From the NCBI GenBank assembly GCA_964477895.1, contig CAYZFQ010000011.1:23825-87824 (forward strand): a DNA stretch of 64,000 nucleotides. The letters are read 5' to 3'. This DNA is from an uncultured Bacteriovoracaceae bacterium (lineage in GTDB: Bacteria > Bdellovibrionota > UBA2428). The notes beneath the pieces were generated by a model that was not told where the DNA came from, did not search any database, and saw nothing but the letters and a program-made list of their open reading frames with translations. Shown one piece after another: positions 17,191-43,312 of this stretch; position 1 is the stretch's first letter; each line of letters opens with the position of its first letter. The position numbers and the translations under genes are program-made.

Positions 17191-18349
17191 AAGACTCATC
17201 TCGCCCCCCTCTACTCAAAGTTTTTTTCTCCTGGGGCCTCGGGGGAGCGGAAAATCAACGTGGCTAAAGACCCATTTCAAAAAGGAAGAAAGTCTCTGGA
17301 TTGATTTGCTCGTGCAAAAAACTGAGCTCAGTCTGGCTCAAGACCCAGATTCTCTCTTGGAAATGTGGCATGGAGCCGGCAAGCCAAAATGGGCTGTCAT
17401 CGATGAGATTCAAAAGTTGCCTGCCCTCCTTGATGTCGTACATCGAGGCATTGAAGAGCATAAGATTCGTTTTGCTCTGACGGGTTCGAGCGCCAGAAAA
17501 CTTCGTAAGGGGCATGCCAATCTACTTGGTGGACGAGCCATAGAGATCCATCTGATGCCCTTTTCCTCACTTGAGCTCGGGAAAGATTTTAAACTCGATC
17601 AAGCCTTGAAGTTTGGTCTTTTGCCACGACTGTGGTCAGACCCCAAAATGACGGACGGCGATCGATCCGACCTTCTCTATTCTTATGTGAGCACCTATCT
17701 GCGTGAAGAGGTTGCAGCAGAACAGCTCGTGCGAAATTTGGACCCCTTCCGAAGATTTTTGCTGGCAGCCGCCCAGTGCAATACGGAACCTTTGAACTAT
17801 TCTAAGATTGGTCGCGATGCCGGGGTAGATTCTAAACAGGTCGAGCGCCATTTTGAGATTCTAGGCGATACCTTGATTGGTAACTATTTGGAACCCTTCC
17901 ATCGATCTGTTCGTAAACGACAAACTGCCAAGAGTAAGTTTTATTTTTTTGATACGGGAGTCGTGAGAGCCTTAACAAATTTAGCGGGCGAGTCCTTGCA
18001 TTCCTCAACTTATGAATATGGAAAACTATTCGAGTCATTTTTGATCAACGAATTCTATAAGCTTCGATCGGGACTCAATAAACGCTGGAATTTTTCGTTT
18101 CTCCGAAGCGAAGACAACGCAGAAATTGACCTCATTGTGGAAAAACCACGGGGAAAGCCCATCCTTGTTGAAATCAAGTCGTTCACGAAGATAACCACGG
18201 AGTCCGTGGCTTCCTTCTCTCGCCTGGCCAAGAAAATGGCACACGAGGAAGCTTTTTTGTTGTCCAATGCCACAACGGCCATCGAGCGAGACGGAATTCG
18301 CTGCGTCAACTGGAAAGAGGGATTGAAAGAAATTTTTATGGTGCCCTAA
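17183..18349 (+). CDS. AAA+ superfamily ATPase with C-terminal DUF4143 (COG1373-type).
   Basis: Walker A LLGPRGSGKSTWL, with DUF4143-like C-terminal half. I chose the ATG at 17183 (388 aa, Walker A about 17 aa from the start). The ORF-track start at 17057 would make the palindrome coding sequence. Confidence 0.75.
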   Translation: MYQRLISPPSTQSFFLLGPRGSGKSTWLKTHFKKEESLWIDLLVQKTELSLAQDPDSLLEMWHGAGKPKWAVIDEIQKLPALLDVVHRGIEEHKIRFALTGSSARKLRKGHANLLGGRAIEIHLMPFSSLELGKDFKLDQALKFGLLPRLWSDPKMTDGDRSDLLYSYVSTYLREEVAAEQLVRNLDPFRRFLLAAAQCNTEPLNYSKIGRDAGVDSKQVERHFEILGDTLIGNYLEPFHRSVRKRQTAKSKFYFFDTGVVRALTNLAGESLHSSTYEYGKLFESFLINEFYKLRSGLNKRWNFSFLRSEDNAEIDLIVEKPRGKPILVEIKSFTKITTESVASFSRLAKKMAHEEAFLLSNATTAIERDGIRCVNWKEGLKEIFMVP

Positions 18350-18425
18350 GGGAGAATCGAACTCCCACGACCTTGCGGCCGGTGGATTTTGAGTCCACTG
18401 CGTCTACCAATTCCGCCATCAGGGC
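18339..18425 (-). tRNA. tRNA-Leu (anticodon CAA).
   Basis: The reverse complement reads GCCCTGATGGCGGAATTGGTAGACGCAGTGGACTCAAAATCCACCGGCCGCAAGGTCGTGGGAGTTCGATTCTCCCTTAGGGCACCA. It has a 7-bp acceptor stem with one G-U pair, the anticodon loop CTCAAAA, a long variable arm, the T-loop TTCGATT and an encoded CCA. It overlaps the ATPase stop codon. Confidence 0.8.
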
Positions 18426-18466: not shown

Positions 18467-18895
18467 ATGGTACGTTCGTCAAAAACCCTTACGGGGACCC
18501 TGAAAAAAATTTTTAAACGCATTTTTGTCCCTCCCTTTCTGGAGCTTTCCCGCAGCGGTAAAATCGTTCAGACTCTTTGGGACGCCTCACAATTGCAGAG
18601 CCAGCAGCGCGACTCCTACCGAAAAATCGGGGAAATTGCGGCTCAGCTTGTCAAAGAGGGGAAACTAGAGAATATAAAAATTGCGAGGATAATAGCCAAA
18701 ATAGACCAAGCCGAGCGCATCTTGCAGAGGCAGGAGCTCATGTTACGAAGTTATCAAGCCCGAGGGGACTTAAGAGAAATCTTAGGAACAGGAGCCGAAA
18801 GCTCGGCTCTAGGGGCCTCTGAAGTGGAAGATGAAGTGAACGATGAAAAAATCACGCAAGAGTCCCTTAAGCGTGATCGCCTTGAACCTGTATAA
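18467..18895 (+). CDS. Hypothetical charged/coiled-coil protein. It is not NuoA-like.
   Basis: 142-aa ORF directly upstream of the nuoBD fusion. No transmembrane helices. Confidence 0.35.
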   Translation: MVRSSKTLTGTLKKIFKRIFVPPFLELSRSGKIVQTLWDASQLQSQQRDSYRKIGEIAAQLVKEGKLENIKIARIIAKIDQAERILQRQELMLRSYQARGDLREILGTGAESSALGASEVEDEVNDEKITQESLKRDRLEPV

Positions 18896-18920: not shown

Positions 18921-20627
18921 ATGGGATTAGAATCAAAACTTAGCGAATCTATTTTTACGACAAAGTTGGACTCCCTTATCAGCTGGGGGAGATCGAATTC
19001 ACTTTGGCCCATGCCGATGGGAATTTCTTGCTGCGCCATCGAGATGATGGCTGCCGTGGGACCCAAGTACGACATGGCTCGCTTTGGCTCCGAGGTGATG
19101 CGTTTTTCGCCCCGGCAGGCTGATTTGATGCTGGTGGCTGGCACACTCACTTACAAAATGGCACCCGTTGTGCGCCGCATCTACGACCAAATGATGGAAC
19201 CCAAGTGGGTTGTGGCCATGGGAACCTGCTTGTGTACGGGCGGGATGTTTGATTCCTATCCGGTGGTTCAGGGACTGGATCATGTGCTCCCGGTAGACGT
19301 TTATATTCCGGGCTGCCCCCCTCGACCTGAGGCCGTGATCCAAGCGCTGCTTAAAATCCAAGAAAAAGTGCGCTCCGGTCGGGGCACCCGACCCCTTTCT
19401 CGCTCCGATGAACCTATGCGAATTAGCGTGCCGGAAATCACAACACCGATTCACCGTAAAAAAACCGATACCCTTGTGCTCAACATGGGCCCCCAGCATC
19501 CTTCCACACACGGGGTCCTTCGTTTGATTTTAGAAGTGGATGGGGAAACCGTTATTCAATGTGTTCCCGAAATTGGCTTTCTTCACCGGGGCTTTGAAAA
19601 AATTGCTGAGAACAAACGCTTTCATCAATTTATTCCCTACACAGATCGCCTCGACTACCTAGCTCCGCTCTCCAACAACGTGAGCTACGCTATGGCGGTA
19701 GAAAAACTTTTGCAAATTGAAATTCCTAAGCGCGGCCAATATATCCGGGTTGTAGCCTGTGAATTGGCCCGTATCAGCGCCCACCTGCTCTCGCTCGGCA
19801 CCTATGCCCTCGATGTGGGCGCGGGCACAGTTTTCTTCCACACTTTTGATGAGCGCGAAAAAATTTATGACCTTATTGAAAAACTTTGCGGTCATCGATT
19901 TACCACTAGCTACACTCGGATTGGGGGCGTGTCTCGGGATGCCTCCGATGAATTTATTCGAGAAACAGTGGCCTTCCTAAAGCAGCTTCCCCAAACCTTA
20001 GACGAAATGGATTCGCTTCTAAGCAACAATCGGATTTGGATTGATCGCACTCGTGGTGTGGGAAAAATCTCCCCGCAGTTGGCCATCAGCTACGGTCTTA
20101 CGGGCCCCAACCTTCGGGCTACGGGTGTGAAGTGGGATTTACGCAAAGACATGCCTTACCTTTCTTACCCAGACTTTGATTTTAACGTGGTGGTGGGTAC
20201 CGATGGGGATTCCTACGATCGTTACCGTGTTCGCCTGCAGGAGATGCGGGAAAGTATCAAGATCCTCACCCAAGCCTTGGGTCATATGCCCACAGGTCCC
20301 ATCAATGCGGATGTGCCGGAAGTGGTGATTCCCACTAAAGAAGAAGTTTACACTCAGATGGAAGCCCTTATTTGGCACTTCAAAATCATCTCCGAAGGCT
20401 TCAAGGCTCCCGCGGGGCAAATATATTCCGCCATTGAAAATCCCAAAGGAGAATTTGGTTTCTTCTTAAAGAGCGAGGGTGGCAACAAGCCCGCTCGACT
20501 GCGCATTCACAGTCCCTCCCTGCGAGGGATTCAAATTCTGCCGGAACTCGTCCGAGGCAAACTTATTGCCGACGTCGTTACCACGGTGGCAAGCCTCGAC
20601 CCTGTTTTGGGCGAGATCGACCGATAA
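18921..20627 (+). CDS. NADH-quinone oxidoreductase NuoB-NuoD fusion protein with no NuoC domain.
   Basis: N-terminus carries the NuoB N2-cluster ligands ([27 protein letters not shown]). From about aa 185 the sequence is NuoD ([16 protein letters not shown] ... DPVLGEIDR). There is no room for the roughly 200-aa NuoC domain. Confidence 0.85.
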
Positions 20628-20646
20628 AATCTTTTAAGGAGTAGAG

Positions 20647-22443
20647 TTGGGAATGGAAGCCAAGCCGGGAGTGAAATTAAGTGTAGATGGGGTGGAAGTG
20701 AGCGTGGCTGCAGGCAGCACCGTGATTAAAGCTGCGGAGCTAGCCGGTAAGCTTATTCCCCACTTCTGCTATCACCCAGGACTTAGCGTGGTGGGCCAGT
20801 GCCGAATGTGTTTTGTAGAGATTGAGGGCGCACCAAAACTTGCCACGGCCTGCTCCACACCCGTGGCTGAGGGAATGAAAATTCTTACAGCCACCGACAA
20901 AGTTAAATCCGGGCAAAATGCCACCCTCGAGTTCACCCTTTTGAACCATCCCTTGGATTGCCCCATTTGCGACCGAGGCGGTGAATGCAAACTCCAAGAT
21001 TACACTTATGAGTTTGGCCCACCCCTTTCTCGCATGGTGGACGAGAAAAAAGAAAACGATAAGCATCGTGCGATTTCATCTGACATTGTATTGGACCAAG
21101 AACGCTGCATTCTTTGCACCCGCTGTGTACGCTTTTCATCTGAGGTCGATGGCAAAGCCGAAATTGTGGTTCAAAACCGCGGCTACTTAAACGTGGTGGA
21201 TGTTTTTGAAGGCCGCCCTTTTAGCTCAAATTTTCAAGGCAACGTGGTGGACATATGCCCCGTGGGCGCCCTTACCGCCAAAGACTACCGCTTTGCTGCT
21301 CGTCCCTGGGAATTAAAAACTCATGACGCCCTTTGCACAGGTTGTGCGGTGGGCTGCAACATCGAAGTGCATACTAAAAACCGCCATGGCGGTATCACAA
21401 GACCCGACGGTCTGCCTCCTTTGCCGCAAATCAAGCGCCTTGTTCCTCGCGACAACATGGAAGTCAACACGTGGTGGCTTTGTGACAAGGGTCGGTGGGG
21501 TTACCACTTTAACAACGAAGAAGAAAAGCGCTTAGAGCATCCGCTCGTGCGCCGAAGTCCCTCAGGAGCTCTGGAAAAACTTAGCCTCAAAGAGGCCCAG
21601 CTTTATATTGAAAAGGCCTCGACCGAGAATTTGGGCGAATGGGAATTTTGGGTGGACGACAACGTCCCACACGAAGAGATTTCTTGGGCCAAAGAAATGC
21701 TTAGCAGCTGGCAAAGCCGAGGCCGCAAAGTCCAAAGCCGAATCAATCCATCGGTTTTTGGAGAATCCTTCTTAAAATACTGGGCTAGTCGCGCCACTTC
21801 ACCTTGGTTTGCCGCTCCGGTGAGCTGGCACGATGTGAAAGTTGTGGCCTCCCCTTACGACTACCGCGAACTCGAAAACATTGCGCCCATTTTGGCGCTG
21901 CGCTTGGGCCAAGCCTTTCGCAAGGGTCAGATCAGAATTGAAAAGCTTTCCGAAAGTGAAATGTCCAATTTCAAGGCCGATGCCTATTTGGTGAACTTGC
22001 CAAAAGATGAGAAGGCTCTAGGATTTTTAAATTCTTTGGCAAGCGACGCCAAAGTCATTCCACTCTTCACGCAAGCCAATTCGCGTGGCCTGGTGAATGA
22101 AGGCATTGCTCCCATTGAGGCCCTCAGTTCTGAACTGAAAAACAAAAAGGCTCAGGGCCCAGTCTTTTTGTTTTCTCAGCGCACCCAAAACGCCCCAAGC
22201 CCCGAGCTTGTGGCCTATTTAAAGAGCGCCCCCTTTGTGATTGTGGCTGACTCCTTTCAAAGCCCGCTCACTCAACTGGCTTCACTCGTGCTACCCCTCA
22301 CACCCCTTTATGAGACCCCCGCCACTCTCACAAATTTAGAAAACCGTCGGCAAAAATCCCCCGGAATCCAGGTCAGTCACCCCAACCACTCTACAGTGCA
22401 ACGCGGCGGCCCCTTGGTTCATCCGAGCCTGCGTCTTTTGTAG
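20647..22443 (+). CDS. NuoG-like Fe-S subunit (75-kDa-subunit N-terminal module) with a short, degenerate C-terminal domain.
   Basis: 2Fe-2S region CYHPGLSVVGQCRMCFVEIEG. His-ligated 4Fe-4S HPLDCPICDRGGEC. Additional cluster motifs CILCTRCVRF...CPVGALT. N7-like CTGCAVGC. Then WWLCDKGRWGYHF...EHPLVRR. Only 598 aa, so the molybdopterin-like domain is truncated. Confidence 0.75.
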   Translation: MGMEAKPGVKLSVDGVEVSVAAGSTVIKAAELAGKLIPHFCYHPGLSVVGQCRMCFVEIEGAPKLATACSTPVAEGMKILTATDKVKSGQNATLEFTLLNHPLDCPICDRGGECKLQDYTYEFGPPLSRMVDEKKENDKHRAISSDIVLDQERCILCTRCVRFSSEVDGKAEIVVQNRGYLNVVDVFEGRPFSSNFQGNVVDICPVGALTAKDYRFAARPWELKTHDALCTGCAVGCNIEVHTKNRHGGITRPDGLPPLPQIKRLVPRDNMEVNTWWLCDKGRWGYHFNNEEEKRLEHPLVRRSPSGALEKLSLKEAQLYIEKASTENLGEWEFWVDDNVPHEEISWAKEMLSSWQSRGRKVQSRINPSVFGESFLKYWASRATSPWFAAPVSWHDVKVVASPYDYRELENIAPILALRLGQAFRKGQIRIEKLSESEMSNFKADAYLVNLPKDEKALGFLNSLASDAKVIPLFTQANSRGLVNEGIAPIEALSSELKNKKAQGPVFLFSQRTQNAPSPELVAYLKSAPFVIVADSFQSPLTQLASLVLPLTPLYETPATLTNLENRRQKSPGIQVSHPNHSTVQRGGPLVHPSLRLL

Positions 22444-22500: not shown

Positions 22501-23496
22501 TTGCCTATGTCATCAGCAAAAAAGTCCGGACCCGTTTCGCAGTTTATTGATCATCATTACCGTCATTTCAACGCTGCCGCCTTAAAGGACGCCGCCCAAG
22601 GTTACGTCACGCACTTGGATAAAAACGGCAAAATGTTTGTAACCTTGGCGGGTGCCATGAGCACCGCAGAGCTCGGCCTTTCGCTTGCGGAAATGATTCG
22701 CCAAGATAAGGTTCATGGGATTTGTTGCACAGGAGCCAACTTAGAGGAAGACGTTTTTAACCTCGTGGCTCATGAGCATTACGCACGAATACCCAATTAC
22801 CGCGACCTCACTCCCCAGGATGAGCAAAAGCTTTTAGAAAAGCACATGAACCGAGTGACCGACACGTGCATCCCCGAGCATGAAGCTATGCGCCGAATCG
22901 AAAATGAAATTCTAGAAGAATGGGTGACGGCCGATAAAGCTGGCAAGGCTTTTTTCCCCCATGAGTTTTTCTATAAAATTTTGCTCTCAGGAAAACTAAA
23001 AAAATCCTACCAAATTGATCCCAAAAATAGCTGGCTCTTAGCTGCTGCCGAAAAAAATCTGCCCATGTTTGTGCCAGGCTGGGAAGACTCCACCTTAGGA
23101 AATATGTACACGGGCCACGTGATGACCGGAGATGTAAAAAACGTTCACACGGTGCGCACAGGAATTGAATACATGGCAAGGCTTGCGGAGTGGTACACCG
23201 AACTGACAGCTAAAAACTCTTTGGGCTTTTTCCAGATTGGCGGGGGCATTGCCGGGGATTTTCCAATTTGTGTAGTGCCCATGCTTCACCAAGACCTCCA
23301 GCGCACGAGTGTTCCTTTGTGGGGATATTTTTGCCAGATATCTGATTCCACCACTTCTTATGGTTCTTATTCAGGAGCCGTGCCTAATGAAAAGATCACC
23401 TGGGGCAAACTAGGAGTCGACACTCCAAAATTTATCGTGGAGTCGGACGCCACTATCGTGGCTCCGCTAATTTTTGCCTATATCTTAGGTTGGTAA
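22501..23496 (+). CDS. Deoxyhypusine synthase family protein (DHS-like / homospermidine-synthase-like).
   Basis: FVTLAGAMSTAELGLSLAEMIRQDKVHGICCTGANLEEDVFNL and the overall length match the DHS family. Confidence 0.8.
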   Translation: MPMSSAKKSGPVSQFIDHHYRHFNAAALKDAAQGYVTHLDKNGKMFVTLAGAMSTAELGLSLAEMIRQDKVHGICCTGANLEEDVFNLVAHEHYARIPNYRDLTPQDEQKLLEKHMNRVTDTCIPEHEAMRRIENEILEEWVTADKAGKAFFPHEFFYKILLSGKLKKSYQIDPKNSWLLAAAEKNLPMFVPGWEDSTLGNMYTGHVMTGDVKNVHTVRTGIEYMARLAEWYTELTAKNSLGFFQIGGGIAGDFPICVVPMLHQDLQRTSVPLWGYFCQISDSTTSYGSYSGAVPNEKITWGKLGVDTPKFIVESDATIVAPLIFAYILGW

Positions 23497-29990: not shown

Positions 29991-30440
29991 ATGTTTGATT
30001 ATAGCGACAAATCCAAGCAATTAGCCCTGGAAATTCACGAAGGCATCGGCCAGAAACCTCCGCGCAAAATCAAATTGCCCAAAACGCTCGCCGTCATCAA
30101 CCAATCTGGTTGCACCGGCTGCGAAGCTTGTATTCAGTTTTGTCCGGTGGACTGCATCGAAGTTGTCCCGGGTCCAAAATTCTTAGACTTAGGAAAACTT
30201 GTGGAAGTCGACTTGGACCGCTGCATTGGGTGCAAGCTCTGTGCAAAGCATTGTCCATGGGACACCATTGAGATGATCCCCTCAGCAGACTCTTACGAAC
30301 AAGCCAACGAATGGACCCTGCGTTCAGTGGTGGAGATGAACGAGGGCGCGGCGGCAATTTGGCCACGGCCAGCCCCTGAACCCGAGGCTGCAACCGTTGA
30401 AGTTGCCGCCGCCGGGGGTTCAGAAAAACCTGAAGCCTAG
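29991..30440 (+). CDS. 2x[4Fe-4S] ferredoxin-domain protein.
   Basis: CTGCEACIQFCPVDCI and CIGCKLCAKHCPWDTI, two CxxCxxCxxxCP motifs. Confidence 0.65.
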   Translation: MFDYSDKSKQLALEIHEGIGQKPPRKIKLPKTLAVINQSGCTGCEACIQFCPVDCIEVVPGPKFLDLGKLVEVDLDRCIGCKLCAKHCPWDTIEMIPSADSYEQANEWTLRSVVEMNEGAAAIWPRPAPEPEAATVEVAAAGGSEKPEA

Positions 30441-37077: not shown

Positions 37078-37482
37078 TCACTTCGCAGTGGAAGGTAGCC
37101 CAATTCTAGCCAACTGAGGAATTTGATCAAAGTCCGAATCCCGGTCAAAGAGAACGAGGTTATGTTGTAAAACCAGTGCCGCAATCCAAAGGTCATTGGT
37201 GGGAATGGGCTTTCCTTTTTTGCGCAAATAAGAATAAAGATCTGCATAAAAAAAAGTTGTTTGATCATCGGGAGACAATACAAAGACTCCTTCATTGTTA
37301 AGGAACTTTGTAAGAGTTCTTTCGTTTTTTTCCCGATTGGCCCCGTGAGCAAAGCCAGCTCTTTGCTCAGCGACAACAATCAGGGGAATAAAAATTTCCA
37401 TCGCATTCTCTACGACTTCTACGACTGAAGATAGGCCTCTGCAAAAGTCCGTGTAACTGTTGGAATCGATGGCAAGTCTCAT
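37078..37482 (-). CDS. vapC: PIN-domain toxin (VapC-like).
   Basis: MRLAIDSNSY... shows the PIN acidic-residue pattern. The ATG overlaps the antitoxin stop (ATGA). Confidence 0.7.
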   Translation of the reverse strand: MRLAIDSNSYTDFCRGLSSVVEVVENAMEIFIPLIVVAEQRAGFAHGANREKNERTLTKFLNNEGVFVLSPDDQTTFFYADLYSYLRKKGKPIPTNDLWIAALVLQHNLVLFDRDSDFDQIPQLARIGLPSTAK

Positions 37483-37739
37483 GACTTCCAAAGATCTTCA
37501 TCGATCTGGCGTTGAAGGGTAATTTCTTCCTCGATACGAAGAGCCTCTTTTTCGGTTAACGAACCCACGACTTCGCTAAAATCTCTTTTAGGCCGAAGAG
37601 TCTCACCCGCCCCAGCGCTTAAGGCTTCCAAGGCAACTTGATTAAAGCTTTTACCAGCCAATTTGGCCCTTCTTTTCAAAGCTCGATCCACGGGGTCGGG
37701 GATATTGCGAATGGTGTATTGTCTTGCAGGCTTTGACAT
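37479..37739 (-). CDS. vapB: VapB/FitA-like antitoxin (ribbon-helix-helix family).
   Basis: MSKPARQYTIRNIPDPVDRALKRRAKLAGKSFNQVALEAL. I prefer the ATG at 37739 over the upstream TTG-initiated extension. Confidence 0.65.
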   Translation of the reverse strand: MSKPARQYTIRNIPDPVDRALKRRAKLAGKSFNQVALEALSAGAGETLRPKRDFSEVVGSLTEKEALRIEEEITLQRQIDEDLWKS

Positions 37740-37775
37740 GTATACATTGTATACGAAGTATGTATACAAAGTCAA
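37739..37775. promoter_or_regulatory. vapBC promoter/operator with three GTATAC palindromes.
   Basis: The minus strand reads TTGACT-n16-TATACA-n8-ATG. (T)GTATAC(A) occurs at 37739-37746, 37748-37755 and 37761-37768. Confidence 0.45.
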
Positions 37776-37854
37776 GGGACTGGATTATCGGGTTTTTCAA
37801 GGGAAACGAACGCAACTTTTGACGCGCCGTAAGCGTCGGACTACTCCAGATGTC

Positions 37855-38355
37855 ATGTCCATTTTGAACCGGATTTCGTCAGTTTTTCAAAAGAATGAGA
37901 CCGTCTTAAAGTCTCCCCTAAAAGGCACAGTCGTGCCGCTTGCCCAAGTTCCCGATGAGACTTTCGCGAGCAAGATACTCGGCGACGGCGTCGCAATCGA
38001 TCCCCTTGAGGGCATCCTGCTGTCGCCCGTGGACGGCGAAGTCGTGCAGGTGTTCCGCACGAACCACGCTGTGGGCCTTTTGAGCGCCTCGGGACTGGAA
38101 ATCTTGCTTCACGTGGGCATCGACACCGTGAAAATGAACGGCGAGGGCTTTCGAGCGCTCGTCAAGCCGGGTCAAAAAGTCAAAGCCGGCGATCGACTGC
38201 TGGAGTTCGACTTGGGCCTTGTGAAAGCCAAAGCAAAATCGGCCATCACGCCTATGGTTGTCACAAACATGGAGGTCGTGAAAAATCTCGAAAATCGCGC
38301 CACGGGCGCCATCGAAGCTGGCCAAGAACTCCTTCGCGTCGAAACGAAGGCCTAA
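37855..38355 (+). CDS. crr: PTS glucose-family EIIA component.
   Basis: VVPLAQVPDETFASKILGDGVAIDP...GLEILLHVGIDTVKMNGEGF is the classic EIIA-Glc sequence. I prefer the internal ATG at 37855 (166 aa). Confidence 0.85.
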   Translation: MSILNRISSVFQKNETVLKSPLKGTVVPLAQVPDETFASKILGDGVAIDPLEGILLSPVDGEVVQVFRTNHAVGLLSASGLEILLHVGIDTVKMNGEGFRALVKPGQKVKAGDRLLEFDLGLVKAKAKSAITPMVVTNMEVVKNLENRATGAIEAGQELLRVETKA

Positions 38356-38383
38356 ACCGGAAACTTAAGGAACGAGAGCAAAC

Positions 38384-38644
38384 ATGGAAAAGACTGTTCG
38401 AATCCTGAATGAAGAGGGCTTTCATGCCCGACCGGCCGGGGTCTTCGTGAAAAAAGCCACGGCTTTCGCCTCGGCCATTGAGGTCCGGCATAACGGCGCC
38501 TCGAAAAACGGCAAGTCGATCATGGCCCTCATGAGCCTCGGCCTCGCTAAGGATTCCGAAATCACCATCGCAGCCCAAGGCCCCGACGCCGACGCCGCCG
38601 TCACAGCCCTCGTCGACCTCGTGAATCGCAAGTTTCAAAACTGA
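38384..38644 (+). CDS. ptsH: Phosphocarrier protein HPr.
   Basis: GFHARPAG (His-15 region). 86 aa. Confidence 0.9.
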   Translation: MEKTVRILNEEGFHARPAGVFVKKATAFASAIEVRHNGASKNGKSIMALMSLGLAKDSEITIAAQGPDADAAVTALVDLVNRKFQN

Positions 38645-40383
38645 TGATTCTCGTCGGCAAAAGCGCTTCGAGCGGCATCGTCGTGGGTCGGGCCCTGCTC
38701 CTAAAGCAGGAAGCCCTTGTCGTCGAGGAAACCCGCGTCGACAACACGGACGTCGAAATCGCCAGATTCCGTCGCTCCATCGAGAAGTCCAAAACGGATC
38801 TCGGGACTGTGCGTGAGAACGCGCTTGCCACGATGGGGGCCGACAAAGCCGCTATTTTTGACGCTCACTTGCTCGTACTCGAGGATCCCGAGCTCATCGA
38901 CGAGACGGAGCGGATCATCCGCGACGACAAACTCAACGCCTCAGCAGCGTTTCGAAAAGTCTCCCAGAACTTCATCGTGATCTTTGACGCCATGGAAAAC
39001 GAATATATGCGCGAGCGGGCCGCGGACATCCGCGACATCTCGGACCGTGTGCTGCGGAACCTGGCCGGGCACAACGTCATGGACCTTTCAACTCTGACCG
39101 ACGAGCATATTGTCGTGTGCCACGATCTGACACCTTCCGAGACGGCCACGCTCAATCCCCAAAAGGTTCTGGGAATCTTGGCGGACATCGGAGGCAAAAC
39201 TGGGCACACCGCCATTATGGCCCGGACGCTCGAGATTCCGGCCGTCCTCGGCCTTCGCAAGATCACGCAGCTTGTGCGGAACGGCGACTGGATCGCCTTC
39301 AACGGCGAAACGGGCGAAGTTGTGATCAACCCCGACGAGAAAACGCGGGAAATGCACCTGCAGGCCCGCGCTCGAGAGCTTCAGGACAAAATCGAGCTAC
39401 AAAAGCTGATCGGGCTTCCAAATCAAACGCTCGACGGCCACACCGTGGGCCTCCTTGGGAACATCGGCAGCATTCAGGACCTCGGTGTCTTAAAAAAATA
39501 CGACGCTCGAGGCGTAGGCCTGTATCGCACCGAGTTCTTGTTCATGGATCACGCCCAGATGCCCACCGAACAGGAACAGTTCGTGGCTTATAAAGCCGTA
39601 CTCGAAGCCTTGCCGAGTCTTCCTGTGACGATTCGCACGCTCGACATCGGCGGAGACAAAGCCGTGCCGTATCTCGACATGGGCAAGGAAGAAAACCCGT
39701 TTCTGGGCTACCGCGCGATCCGCTACTGCCTGGAGCACCCAGAGGTGTTTCGTCCCCAGCTTCGCGCCCTGCTGCGAGCGAGCGTCTACGGCAACCTTCG
39801 CATCATGTTCCCGATGATCTCATCGCTCGACGAACTTCTGGCCGCCAAAGAGGCCGTGGCCTCGGTCCGCGCCGAGCTCGTGACGGAGGGCGTGTCCGTG
39901 GCCAACGATCTGCCACTAGGCGTGATGATCGAGATCCCTTCGGCGGCGATCATCTCAGACGTCCTTGCCCAGCATTGCGAGTTCATGAGCATCGGCACGA
40001 ACGACCTCATTCAATATGTTGTCGCCGTCGATCGCCAAAACGAACGCGTGCAGAACCTTTATGATCCTTTCCATCCGGGCGTGCTACGCCTGATCGCCAC
40101 GGTCATCGAAAACGGCCATAAATACGGCCGAAAAGTCAGCATGTGCGGCGAGATGGGCGGCAGCGAGCTGCACTTGCCGCTCTTGCTTGGACTCGGTCTA
40201 GACGAATTCAGCATGGCGCCGACCTACGTTCTTCGGGCCCGTCGGCAGTTGCGCCAATGGACAATCATCGAGGCCCGAAAACTCTCTCAAGACGTCCTGA
40301 AACGATCCCGCTCCGCCGAGATCGAAGCCCTCCTCACAGAAGCCCGCAATCAAAACGCTAAAGCAAAGAGGTCCTCACTATGA
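38644..40383 (+). CDS. ptsI: PTS Enzyme I (phosphoenolpyruvate-protein phosphotransferase).
   Basis: MILVGKSASSGIVVGRALLL. GGKTGHTAIMARTLEIPAV (active-site His). PEP-utilising domain. Confidence 0.9.
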   Translation: MILVGKSASSGIVVGRALLLKQEALVVEETRVDNTDVEIARFRRSIEKSKTDLGTVRENALATMGADKAAIFDAHLLVLEDPELIDETERIIRDDKLNASAAFRKVSQNFIVIFDAMENEYMRERAADIRDISDRVLRNLAGHNVMDLSTLTDEHIVVCHDLTPSETATLNPQKVLGILADIGGKTGHTAIMARTLEIPAVLGLRKITQLVRNGDWIAFNGETGEVVINPDEKTREMHLQARARELQDKIELQKLIGLPNQTLDGHTVGLLGNIGSIQDLGVLKKYDARGVGLYRTEFLFMDHAQMPTEQEQFVAYKAVLEALPSLPVTIRTLDIGGDKAVPYLDMGKEENPFLGYRAIRYCLEHPEVFRPQLRALLRASVYGNLRIMFPMISSLDELLAAKEAVASVRAELVTEGVSVANDLPLGVMIEIPSAAIISDVLAQHCEFMSIGTNDLIQYVVAVDRQNERVQNLYDPFHPGVLRLIATVIENGHKYGRKVSMCGEMGGSELHLPLLLGLGLDEFSMAPTYVLRARRQLRQWTIIEARKLSQDVLKRSRSAEIEALLTEARNQNAKAKRSSL

Positions 40384-41915
40384 AAATATTCTCCACACTT
40401 CAGAAGCTAGGCAAATCCCTTATGCTCCCGGTCTCAGTCTTGCCCGTGGCCGGTATTCTCCTGGGCGTCGGCGGGGGCTTCCTTGCGAGCGCCGACAAAA
40501 CGGGTCTCACGCTAAGCCCCACTGTTCGCACCGTGCTCGAGATCATGCAGAATTCGGGTGGCTCGATTTTCGGCGCCCTCGCGCTGTTGTTTGCGATCGG
40601 CGTAGCGCTTGGTTTCACTGACGACGACGGCGTCGCAGGCTTGGCGGGTGTCGTGGGCTTCGTTGTGCTTCAAGGCACGCTCGGCACGCTCGCAAAAGCT
40701 TTCAACGTGACGACCACCAAGGTCCTAGGCATCGACTCCATCAACACCGGCGTCGCGGGCGGCATCATCGCCGGCCTCATTGCGGCTTACATGTTCAACC
40801 GTTTTTACCGAATCAAACTTCCCTCTTATCTAGGCTTTTTCGCGGGCAAGCGCTTCGTGCCGATCGCCACGGCGTTTGCCTCGATCCTGGCTGGCGCAGT
40901 GCTCATCGTTATTTGGCCTCCCATCGGCCGGGGCATCGACGCCTTCTCTCAATGGGCCTCGAAGGAAAATCTGCTTTTGGCCACGGGCCTGTACGGGATC
41001 GTCGAGCGCTCTCTCATTCCACTCGGCCTGCATCATATCTGGAACGTGCCCTTCTTCTTTGAAATGGGTCAGTACTATCAACCTCTGCAGCCCGGCGTGG
41101 ACTGCGCCGTAGAAGCCGCTCGCACGAACGCCGAGATGTGCAAGCTCGTCACGGGCGAGATCCCGCGCTTCTTCGCGGCCGACCCGACGGCCGGCAATCT
41201 GGCCGGGGGCTTCCTTTTCAAGATGTTCGGCCTTCCGGCTGCGGCCATCGCCATGTGGCATTGCGCGCGTCCCGAAAAGCGCGCCGTCATCGGGAGTCTC
41301 ATGATCTCGGCCGCTTTCACGAGCTTTTTGACCGGCATCACGGAGCCCATTGAGTTCTCGTTCCTCTTCGTGGCCCCAATTCTTTATGTCTTCCACGCGC
41401 TCTTAGCCGGAGGCGCGTTCGTCCTCACGAACCTCGTCGACGCCAAGCTGGGCTTTGCTTTTTCGCATGGCGCGATCGACTACGTCTTACATCACTTCGT
41501 GAGCGGCCTCGGCCGCAACCAGCTCTTGATCATTCCCCTGGGCCTTGCTTACGCAGCCGTGTATTACACGGTCTTCCGTGTAGCCATCACCAAATTGAAT
41601 CTCATGACCCCTGGACGCGAGGCCGATGATGTCTCGAAACCCGCGGCCTCAAAGTTGATGGCAGGACAAGGCGAATTGGCTGCCGAGCTTATCGCGGCCT
41701 TCGGAGGCAGTGCGAACATCGCGAGCCTTGATGCCTGCATCACACGCTTGCGCATTGAGGTGAAAGAGATCGAGCGCGTGGACCAGGCCCGAATCAAGGC
41801 CCTCGGCGCGGCAGGCGTATTCGTGAGCGGCAACGGGATTCAAGCTGTCTTCGGAACTCGCTCGGACAACCTCCGCTCCGACATGGCCGAACTCATAAAA
41901 AAATCAGCGCTATGA
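40380..41915 (+). CDS. PTS glucose/GlcNAc-family EIICB permease.
   Basis: Polytopic EIIC followed by an EIIB domain with LDACITRLRIEV (phospho-Cys). ATGA overlap with ptsI. Confidence 0.85.
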   Translation: MKIFSTLQKLGKSLMLPVSVLPVAGILLGVGGGFLASADKTGLTLSPTVRTVLEIMQNSGGSIFGALALLFAIGVALGFTDDDGVAGLAGVVGFVVLQGTLGTLAKAFNVTTTKVLGIDSINTGVAGGIIAGLIAAYMFNRFYRIKLPSYLGFFAGKRFVPIATAFASILAGAVLIVIWPPIGRGIDAFSQWASKENLLLATGLYGIVERSLIPLGLHHIWNVPFFFEMGQYYQPLQPGVDCAVEAARTNAEMCKLVTGEIPRFFAADPTAGNLAGGFLFKMFGLPAAAIAMWHCARPEKRAVIGSLMISAAFTSFLTGITEPIEFSFLFVAPILYVFHALLAGGAFVLTNLVDAKLGFAFSHGAIDYVLHHFVSGLGRNQLLIIPLGLAYAAVYYTVFRVAITKLNLMTPGREADDVSKPAASKLMAGQGELAAELIAAFGGSANIASLDACITRLRIEVKEIERVDQARIKALGAAGVFVSGNGIQAVFGTRSDNLRSDMAELIKKSAL

Positions 41916-43312
41916 ACCACGTCTTTCCACCTGGCTTCGTCTGGGGATCTGCTACGGCCGCCATCCAAGTCGAGGGCGCCGCTCGAGAAGACGGTAAAGG
42001 ACCCTCGAATTGGGACGTCTTTTGCCGCGAGCATCCGGAACGGATTTACGATCGCGGAAGTCCCGAGGTGGCTTGCGATCATTACCACCGCTTCCGCGAA
42101 GACGTCGGTCTGATGAAAGAAATGGGACACACGGGCTATCGCATGTCGATCGCCTGGACCCGCATTTTTCCCACGGGCGAGGGCCCTCTCAATACCGAAG
42201 GCGTCCGCTTTTACCGCGAGCTTTTCGCCGAGTTGCTCGCGCAGGGCATCGAGCCGAACGTCACGCTTTATCATTGGGATTTACCCCAGGCTCTAGCCGA
42301 GCGCGGCGGTTGGGAGAACAAAAGCACCATCCAGGCCTTCGAAAAATACGCCCGCACCTGCTTTGAACTTTTTGGCGACCAAGTCCGCCTCTGGTCCACA
42401 CTGAATGAGCCTGGGTGGACGACTCTCCAAAGCTACGTGACCGGCCTCCACCCCCCCTGCAAAACGGATCAGCGCGCAGCCATACAAGTTGCGCATAATT
42501 TTTTGGTGGCTCATGCTCGGTCCGTTGCGGCCTTTCGCGAGTCCGGGTGCCCTGGGCTGATCGGGCTCGTGCTCAACATGTCCACCGTTTATCCCGCCAG
42601 CCAAGATTCAGCCGACGCAGATGCCGCACGCATCGCCGACGGCATTCTGAATCGCTGGTTTATCGATCCGGCGCTGAAAGGCTGTTATCCCGACGACATA
42701 TGGCAACTCTATAAATCCTGCGGGCTCTTGCCCGAGCATACACCCGAGGAGCTTGAGCTCTTCGGGCGCCACACGATCGACTTCATTGGCGTCAACTATT
42801 ACTACCCCCACTTCGCGAGCGCCGACGCCCAAGAATCCGCGTATCATCTGAACACCTCGGGGGATAAAAACGAGGACTGCAAATTCTCGATCCGCGGCCT
42901 TTTTCGCTTCGTGAAGAATCCAAACGGACGCTTCACGGATTGGGGCTGGGAGATTTATCCCGACGGCCTCTATGATTTACTGATGCGGGCCCACGAGTAC
43001 CGACCCGGCATTCCTGTTTACATCACCGAGAACGGAATCGGACAGCATGAGTCGCTCGACCAGAACGGCGAGCTCAACGACGATGGACGCATCGAGTTCG
43101 TTCGCGAACATCTCAAGGTGGCCCACCGTGCGTGGCGCGACGGCGTGAATCTGAAGGGCTATTACATGTGGGCGCTCATGGATAATTTTTCGTGGGTCAA
43201 CGGTTTCAAAAAGCGTTACGGATTTTTGTTTGTGGACCGCGTGACACTCGATCGAACAATCAAGGCAAGTGGCCGCTGGTATCGCCAGGTCTCCGAGGCG
43301 AACGGGTTTTAG
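41912..43312 (+). CDS. Glycoside hydrolase family 1 (beta-glucosidase / 6-phospho-beta-glucosidase).
   Basis: FVWGSATAAIQVEGA, TLNEPG and ITENGIG (the two catalytic Glu regions). ATGA overlap with the EIICB gene. Confidence 0.85.
   Translation: MNHVFPPGFVWGSATAAIQVEGAAREDGKGPSNWDVFCREHPERIYDRGSPEVACDHYHRFREDVGLMKEMGHTGYRMSIAWTRIFPTGEGPLNTEGVRFYRELFAELLAQGIEPNVTLYHWDLPQALAERGGWENKSTIQAFEKYARTCFELFGDQVRLWSTLNEPGWTTLQSYVTGLHPPCKTDQRAAIQVAHNFLVAHARSVAAFRESGCPGLIGLVLNMSTVYPASQDSADADAARIADGILNRWFIDPALKGCYPDDIWQLYKSCGLLPEHTPEELELFGRHTIDFIGVNYYYPHFASADAQESAYHLNTSGDKNEDCKFSIRGLFRFVKNPNGRFTDWGWEIYPDGLYDLLMRAHEYRPGIPVYITENGIGQHESLDQNGELNDDGRIEFVREHLKVAHRAWRDGVNLKGYYMWALMDNFSWVNGFKKRYGFLFVDRVTLDRTIKASGRWYRQVSEANGF

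Follow-up and report, generated by a model that had tools for sequence, protein, structure and literature searches.

A NuoB-NuoD fusion and a NuoG-like protein encoded side by side in Bdellovibrionota: a probable peripheral arm of a split complex I

Introduction

The nuo genes of Bdellovibrio, which encode complex I, were listed as 'split' in an earlier survey (PMC4758237), and a comparative genomics study of 2026 reported that all Bdellovibrionota, whether predatory or not, carry a membrane-arm cluster, nuoAHJKLMN, at a conserved position in the chromosome, and that predatory members alone have a second, complete set of 14 nuo genes (PMC13147790). The Campylobacter/Helicobacter-type enzyme has been described with a 'NuoG-like 12th subunit', and NuoC is described as stabilising the Q-module via contacts with NuoD, NuoI and NuoG (PMC3144371); flavodoxin has been named as electron donor for complex I of the Campylobacter/Helicobacter type (10.1101/2025.03.13.643058). 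Here we analyse a 64-kb stretch of DNA (the window; contig CAYZFQ010000011.1) from an uncultured Bacteriovoracaceae bacterium, in which one gene, nuoBD, encodes NuoB and NuoD as a single polypeptide (BD) and is followed by a nuoG-like gene. To our knowledge, NuoC (30 kDa, NDUFS3) is counted among the 11 minimal-core subunits of all complex I-type enzymes and has homologues in every characterised relative. We consider it likely that nuoBD and nuoG form a two-gene operon, that this operon encodes the greater part of the peripheral, electron-transferring arm of a quinone reductase of the complex I type, and that the remainder of the enzyme is encoded elsewhere in the genome.

Results

The nuoBD gene joins NuoB to NuoD without a NuoC domain

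A sequence-only reading of the window had described nuoBD as a fused NuoB-NuoD with complete N2-cluster ligands and a full NuoD, and our searches bear this out. Pfam recognises Oxidored_q6 (PF01058) at residues 37-145 (97.1 bits against a cutoff of 27) and Complex1_49kDa (PF00346) at residues 298-568, and both domains score above the curated NCBIfam cutoffs: nuoB_fam TIGR01957 with 228.6 bits over residues 11-152 (cutoff 142.7) and NuoD TIGR01962 with 538.8 bits over residues 184-568 (cutoff 459.35). All four N2 cysteines are present. Matches to PDB sequences found with phmmer reached 2.5e-121 for the complex I 49-kDa subunit and about 1e-61 for NuoB chains. The protein is a 100% match to database protein P0001.

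The same reading held that the fusion leaves no room for a NuoC domain, which several lines of evidence confirm. About 30 residues (154-184) separate the B and D domains, and a Pfam search of the protein gave no match to the NuoC domain Complex1_30kDa (PF00329). In alignments, Thermus Nqo6 covers residues 9-152 and Nqo4 covers residues 179-568. An AlphaFold2 model built with 74 homologues (pLDDT 83.5, pTM 0.85) shows the linker (153-184) as an extended segment without secondary structure or an extra domain, with pLDDT block means of 71-84, and its D domain superimposes on complex I 49-kDa chains with TMt 0.96 and a root-mean-square deviation of 1.7 Å (Foldseek).

The N2 ligands and the quinone-site residues are retained throughout the family. 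In an alignment of 74 members, 55-89% identical, the N2 ligands C37 and C38 (a tandem CC), C103 and C132 are invariant, as are H197 and Y246 of the quinone site and the N-terminal region of NuoB, and the B-D linker has a near-constant length and a few semi-conserved positions. H197 (in HPSTHGV) and Y246 (in DRLDY) align with the corresponding mitochondrial motifs; we take them to be the equivalents of the quinone-headgroup ligands H38 and Y87 of Thermus Nqo4. Judged by these sequences, BD is a quinone-reducing NuoD-type protein under purifying selection.

Because NuoD shares ancestry with hydrogenase subunits, BD gives weak NCBIfam matches to FrhG (E 9e-6) and FrhA (3e-4), and one might read its D part as the large subunit of a group-4 [NiFe]-hydrogenase, with the whole module being H2-evolving or Ehr-type. 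Inspection of the NiFe ligand positions, which the sequence-only reading had proposed as a check, speaks against this: where two CxxC pairs would be expected, neither the N-terminal position (a stretch of 10 residues, not reproduced here) nor the C-terminal one (DPVLGEIDR) contains a cysteine. Moreover, the best matches are to complex I 49-kDa subunits at 1e-121, HPSTHGV and DRLDY are conserved, and TIGR01962 is matched above its cutoff. A hydrogenase identity of the D part is refuted by its sequence, and we give it almost no weight. Since the N2 cysteines and the quinone-site His/Tyr pair are invariant and the NiFe ligands are absent, BD appears to be part of a quinone-reducing complex I rather than of a hydrogenase or a soluble module.

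The nuoG-like gene and the operon

The nuoG-like gene begins 19 nt after nuoBD and has a strong ribosome-binding site (AAGGAG at 20636-20641, 9 nt past the nuoBD stop codon). Its product matches the Pfam families Fer2_4, NADH-G_4Fe-4S_3, Fer4_Nqo3 and Molybdop_Fe4S4 and, in a phmmer search of PDB, Mycobacterium smegmatis NuoG at 6.5e-77. Four cluster motifs are readable (numbered from TTG 20647): the 2Fe-2S motif C41/C52/C55/C69, the His-ligated 4Fe-4S motif H101-C105-C108-C114, a second 4Fe-4S motif C154-C157-C160...C204 and an N7-type CxxCxxxC...C motif, C230-C233-C237...C279. All of these residues are invariant in an alignment of 55 sequences, so the earlier assignment of a NuoG-like protein with all N-terminal cluster motifs stands. 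By motif content, the N2 cluster and the His/Tyr site of quinone reduction belong to BD, and N1b, N4, N5 and an N7-type cluster to the NuoG-like protein.

The C-terminus, which had been read as truncated, is modestly short and not badly truncated. The protein is some 70-90 residues shorter than its Paracoccus and mitochondrial counterparts; its AlphaFold2 model (pLDDT 90.6), however, aligns over its full length to bacterial and mitochondrial NuoG/75-kDa chains (TMq 0.73-0.78). Still shorter NuoG proteins of about 545 aa are common in metagenome-assembled genomes (MAGs) of NC10 and Acidobacteria type.

A conserved 142-aa open reading frame (ORF) that ends 25 nt upstream of nuoBD is a possible member of the operon. 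Searches with tblastn place it directly upstream of BD in 15 Bacteriovoracaceae loci (35-69% identity); it was not found upstream of BD in the contexts inspected in other phyla, and it matched no Pfam or NCBIfam family. A tRNA-Leu(CAA) gene (18339-18425, minus strand) lies between this ORF and a gene for an AAA/DUF4143 ATPase.

The fusion is widespread and is not an artefact

Regarded at first as an orphan curiosity, BD proved to share its architecture with many other proteins. All of the top 120 matches listed from a search of 5.8 billion proteins have the PF01058+PF00346 architecture (about 570 aa), which recurs in over 100 independent clusters drawn from assemblies of NCBI, ENA, JGI and Logan; identity averages 66% per alignment column, and clustering at 50% reduces the family to one representative. 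Homologues 78-89% identical to the window protein come from Bacteriovoracaceae and Bacteriovorax MAGs, the lineage to which they assign the window, and those at 55-65% from other Bdellovibrionota, Krumholzibacteria and MAGs labelled Nitrospirae or Pseudomonadota. The next-best matches after the BD family, in a library of 1.8 billion proteins, are NuoBCD fusions of 771-829 aa. A metagenome scan with a BD profile returned canonical B-C-D loci only (none of the 80 best matches was BD), which suggests that BD accounts for a small minority of nuoB genes.

At one Eisenbacteria MAG locus (L028), a stop codon in the linker region splits B and D into two adjacent ORFs; G and I come next, and C is again absent. 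The C-less module may be unfused here, or the stop codon may be a sequencing error. If B and D are indeed unfused there, the C-less arrangement does not strictly depend on fusion. The same locus could be cited in favour of regarding the B-D fusion itself as an assembly or frameshift artefact, or as a pseudogene decaying after the loss of nuoC. Such an origin is refuted by conservation and has, in our judgement, a negligible probability: the same single ORF recurs in the independent clusters from all four sources, its catalytic residues are invariant and its AlphaFold2 model is confident.

More distant C-less fusions, 32-39% identical, were present in the protein library (P0385, P0478 and P0489): B-D proteins of 553 and 507 aa and a NuoI-NuoB-NuoD triple fusion of 668 aa. 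None has a complete set of NiFe cysteines. The theme of fusion without NuoC may therefore be broader than the BD family.

BD is encoded apart from the rest of complex I

The sequence-only reading had noted that no nuoA, C, E, F or H-N genes lie beside the pair, and for the whole window this is correct. Searches with tblastn using 13 Nuo proteins of E. coli MG1655 detected no other nuo gene in the window, the matches being B, D, G and, weakly, a ferredoxin at 30111-30437. The window ORFs between 1 and 53 kb, scanned with Pfam, likewise gave no further nuo gene.

We then compared the contexts of other BD loci, using precomputed gene calls and tblastn with E. coli Nuo proteins over fetched flanks of up to 10 kb (Table 1). 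No A, C, E, F, H or J-N gene was found in the flanks of 25 BD loci, and a membrane arm adjoining BD was never found in ten further contexts across lineages and 80 genome loci. Where nuoI is part of the module, its product scores 127-128 bits against the NuoI cutoff of 113 and keeps the NuoI-specific N-terminal region. The unit, in its ancestral form nuoBD-nuoG-nuoI, is both conserved and physically isolated in several phyla.

A NuoI profile search located a Bacteriovoracaceae-like nuoI as an orphan, after smpB and before an M28 peptidase gene (L095-L097:10001-10483), with no other nuo gene within 10 kb. This nuoI has its longest contig (1,536,195 bp) and its NCBI accession series in common with a BD 79% identical to that of the window. 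The nuo genes of this enzyme are thus genuinely scattered in the Bacteriovoracaceae lineage.

Several neighbouring genes recur. In Krumholzibacteria (L001:14550-19660, L002, L003 and L006:14206-18508), an rnf operon (RnfA/B/C/D/G/E) directly follows BD-G-I on the same strand, and a small SnoaL-like gene overlaps the end of nuoI in three of these four loci. Two related lineages have an extra stand-alone NuoB of 166 aa (PRK14818, 279.6 bits, above cutoff) about 3 kb downstream of BD-G-I (L009:17268-17768 and L091:16745-17245), so that these genomes hold two NuoB copies. A gene similar to deoxyhypusine/homospermidine synthases (PF01916) lies near nuoBD in the window (22501-23496, plus strand) and at other loci (L014:13627-14598; L020:18177-19148; L009:7075-8049 and L091:6217-7344, both minus strand). 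Its distance to nuoBD is a few kb, at most about 6.5 kb (in L020), in lineages with BD proteins only about 60% identical; the PF01916 proteins of these loci are 69-76% identical to each other.

Table 1. Coordinates of the features in the window and arrangements of nuo genes at BD loci
Feature	Location	Strand	Evidence or remarks
nuoBD, NuoB-NuoD fusion, 568 aa, single ORF	18921..20627	+	Pfam, NCBIfam, phmmer, homologues
NuoB domain, residues 1-153	18921..19379	+	N2 ligands C37, C38, C103, C132; TIGR01957
B-D linker, residues 154-184	19380..19472	+	stands where BCD fusions have their NuoC domain
NuoD domain, residues 185-568	19473..20627	+	quinone-site H197 (HPSTHGV) and Y246 (DRLDY); C-terminus DPVLGEIDR, NiFe cysteines absent
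nuoG-like gene, 598 aa (TTG 20647) or 596 aa (ATG 20653, NCBI version, P0121)	20647..22443	+	Pfam, TIGR01973, phmmer, AlphaFold2
conserved 142-aa ORF, ends 25 nt upstream of nuoBD	18467..18895	+	tblastn
149-aa 2x[4Fe-4S] ferredoxin	29991-30440	+	domain content, tblastn
nuoBD-nuoG-nuoI	L001-3, L006 (Krumholzibacteria); L009, L091, L093, L094
nuoBD-nuoI	L092
nuoBD alone	L008
nuoBD-nuoG, as in the window	15 Bacteriovoracaceae loci
unfused B and D, then G and I, without C	L028:2-1690, Eisenbacteria MAG

Other genes of the window

The 149-aa ferredoxin gene was considered as the missing nuoI and rejected: the protein scores 39.3 bits with TIGR01971 (cutoff 113.05), and the NuoI-specific N-terminal region (YPEE..P..RG) is absent from it in the alignment. 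Its best similarity, below threshold, is to the Fe-S domain of RnfB. The gene is syntenic in seven Bacteriovoracaceae loci, 7-9 kb downstream of nuoBD-nuoG (70-75% identity), together with genes for a 2-oxoglutarate-Fe(II) oxygenase and a TonB-like protein. It is possible, but unproven, that this ferredoxin serves as an electron carrier for the BD-G enzyme.

Further downstream, at 37663-43312 (plus strand), genes for phosphotransferase system (PTS) EIIA, Enzyme I, EIIBC and a GH1 6-phospho-beta-glucosidase-type protein form a block with 58-59% GC, compared with 44-51% for most of the remaining window. A PIN-domain gene (37078-37491, minus strand) lies just upstream. The block looks like a horizontally acquired sugar-uptake island, which would be unusual for a Bdellovibrionota-type genome.

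Discussion

The reported membrane-arm cluster A-H-J-K-L-M-N and the genes B, D, G and I complement each other exactly, and we therefore read nuoBD-nuoG, with nuoI elsewhere, as the peripheral arm that belongs to this cluster. The sequence-only reading had left two possibilities, a part of a split or modified complex and a stand-alone redox module. The first is supported by the invariant quinone-site and N2 residues, the scattered nuoI and the reported nuoAHJKLMN cluster.

For the second, BD-G(-I) would be a soluble or peripherally bound Fe-S module without a membrane arm, which reduces a soluble acceptor or quinone and does not pump. It is true that the module is encoded apart from membrane subunits at every locus inspected, and the PDB matches of NuoG include soluble NuoG-like or NuoEFG-like modules of hydrogenases and formate dehydrogenases. 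In solved complex I structures (for example PDB 4HEA), however, the quinone site is completed only by NuoH, and a NuoB/NuoD pair that retains its N2 cluster and its His/Tyr site is meaningful only on top of the NuoH quinone tunnel. All family members keep this site and the NuoB N-terminal region unchanged, and the NuoI proteins of the module retain their NuoI-specific N-terminal region. Both observations are hard to reconcile with an enzyme without a membrane arm; a complementary membrane-only cluster has, in addition, been reported (PMC13147790). Because the NuoB/NuoD quinone site needs NuoH, we do not favour a stand-alone module and regard it as very unlikely.

In the split complex that we propose, BD, the NuoG-like protein and a separately encoded NuoI would dock onto the nuoAHJKLMN membrane arm. 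Electrons would pass from NuoG (N1b, N4, N5) through NuoI (N6a, N6b) and NuoB (N2) to quinone at the B/D/H interface, where quinone reduction would drive proton pumping. Going one step further, the enzyme may have neither a cognate NuoC, whose clamping role the covalent B-D tether would take over, nor cognate NuoE and NuoF. Given the reported contacts of NuoC within the Q-module, the tether is a plausible substitute for it. Without NuoEF, NuoG would need another reductant. Its electrons might come from a NuoEF pair that a second nuo cluster lends or, as in Campylobacter, from a donor of the ferredoxin or flavodoxin type. The adjacency of rnf in Krumholzibacteria and the syntenic ferredoxin in Bacteriovoracaceae are weak hints of a ferredoxin donor.

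Several observations weigh against our interpretation. The absence of nuoC, nuoE and nuoF covers the 64-kb window and the flanks (up to 10 kb) of 25 loci. As far as we know, no characterised member of the superfamily of complex I and group-4 hydrogenases lacks a NuoC homologue, which makes a NuoC-less enzyme a priori unlikely. The NuoG-like protein scores 412.8 bits with NuoG TIGR01973, below the cutoff of 470.05, and the match spans model positions 2-419 of 606. The link between BD and nuoAHJKLMN draws on one paper (PMC13147790) and on complementarity; with the tools used here, no membrane-arm cluster was seen in any BD-carrying genome. Finally, with a complete 14-gene set in predatory Bdellovibrionota (PMC13147790), NuoC, NuoE and NuoF may come in trans. 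On balance, an enzyme truly without NuoC seems to us somewhat less probable than one that has it.

This second nuo set also invites a different explanation, in which BD and the NuoG-like protein are paralogues, that is, alternative isoforms that swap into a canonical complex I. A complete nuoA-N operon elsewhere would then supply NuoC, E, F and I and the membrane arm. The sequence-only reading had named such an operon as an observation that would make these genes paralogues, and in predatory Bdellovibrionota it is probably present (PMC13147790); the extra stand-alone NuoB near BD-G-I in L009 and L091 shows that Q-module paralogy occurs in these lineages. A complete operon does not explain away BD-G, however, because B, D, G and I are all missing from the universal AHJKLMN cluster, which requires precisely the parts that BD-G-I provides (PMC13147790). 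In addition, BD-G-I is kept as a unit in phyla as distant as Krumholzibacteria, and the NuoC that a fused B-D would have to bind, whether free-standing or fused to D, would be of a different lineage. We consider swapping isoforms unlikely.

If the split enzyme does lack NuoC, it would combine ten of the 11 'minimal' core functions with NuoG, drawn from three or more unlinked loci, a composition that we put forward tentatively. With similar caution, we suggest that there may be a widespread complex I lineage in Bdellovibrionota, Krumholzibacteria and allied MAG lineages that has a short B-D tether in place of NuoC and no cognate NuoEF, and in which NuoG is the point of entry for a non-NADH donor (ferredoxin or flavodoxin), possibly coupled to Rnf. 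The odds of this being correct are, in our estimate, a little below even.

Two origins of the fusion are conceivable: a BCD fusion may have lost its C part, or B and D may have fused once C was gone. The best-scoring NCBIfam model, NuoBCD PRK13292, favours BCD ancestry; in a simple neighbour-joining tree, which has no support values, the neighbours of most BD D-domains are unfused NuoD proteins of Acidobacteria. Operons of Acidobacteriota MAGs (L024-L027, L029-L037) have the gene order A-C-D-E-F-G-H-J-K-L-M-N, and their NuoD is sister to most BD fusions in that tree. Two genes are missing from this order, nuoB after A and nuoI after H, and tblastn with the two proteins detected neither, so both must be encoded elsewhere.

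A multi-phylum family that works without NuoC would, if real, reveal the role of NuoC as that of a clamp replaceable by a 30-residue tether, and would offer a natural minimal Q-module for structural and assembly studies. The electron donor of respiration in predatory Bdellovibrionota would become open to question. There is also a practical consequence: pipelines that judge complex I completeness by co-localised or individually named nuo genes could score BD carriers as partial, because databases annotate BD as 'subunit D' only and NCBI names the relatives of the NuoG-like protein '(2Fe-2S)-binding protein'.

Comparison with known systems

Neither a C-less B-D fusion nor a BD-G-I module is described in the two studies of Bdellovibrionota nuo genes (PMC4758237, PMC13147790), and we found no description of either in the literature searched, a corpus of 8 million papers; the 'NuoBD' of an Asgard preprint refers to the NuoB/D/H interface and not to a fusion. 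The closest described proteins are the NuoBCD fusions of Thermodesulfobacteriota and others (PRK13292), which also hold NuoB and NuoD in one polypeptide. BD matches PRK13292 in two stretches, the B part and the D part, and its 698.7 bits fall short of the cutoff of 1156. NuoBCD fusions have a NuoC domain of about 200 residues (PF00329) between B and D, which BD lacks, and they sit in full nuo operons, whereas BD is isolated in all loci inspected. The E. coli-type (clade E) NuoCD is likewise a Q-module fusion containing NuoD, and its D part is 41% identical to that of BD; there, however, the partner of NuoD is C, while in BD it is B, and C is absent altogether.

With the complex I of Campylobacter and Helicobacter, the BD-G pair shares a NuoG-like subunit that goes with the Q-module and is encoded without an adjacent nuoE or nuoF, although the epsilonproteobacterial enzymes keep NuoC and one contiguous operon and the BD module has no C and scattered genes. 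The 11-subunit complex I-like enzymes without NuoEFG and the photosynthetic NDH-1 are similar in having a core without NuoEF and ferredoxin-type donors, but they have no NuoG and keep NuoC/NdhJ, whereas the BD module has G and lacks C. Within the phylum, the 'split' nuo genes of Bdellovibrio (PMC4758237) and the nuoAHJKLMN cluster (PMC13147790) also spread nuo genes over several loci, and AHJKLMN is the presumed partner of the BD module. The expectation of a non-standard complex I arrangement has thus held up: B and D are fused, C is missing from the module, G occurs there without E and F, and the operon is conserved in isolation. The parts are ordinary complex I parts; it is their composition and the conserved isolated operon that depart from the standard arrangement.

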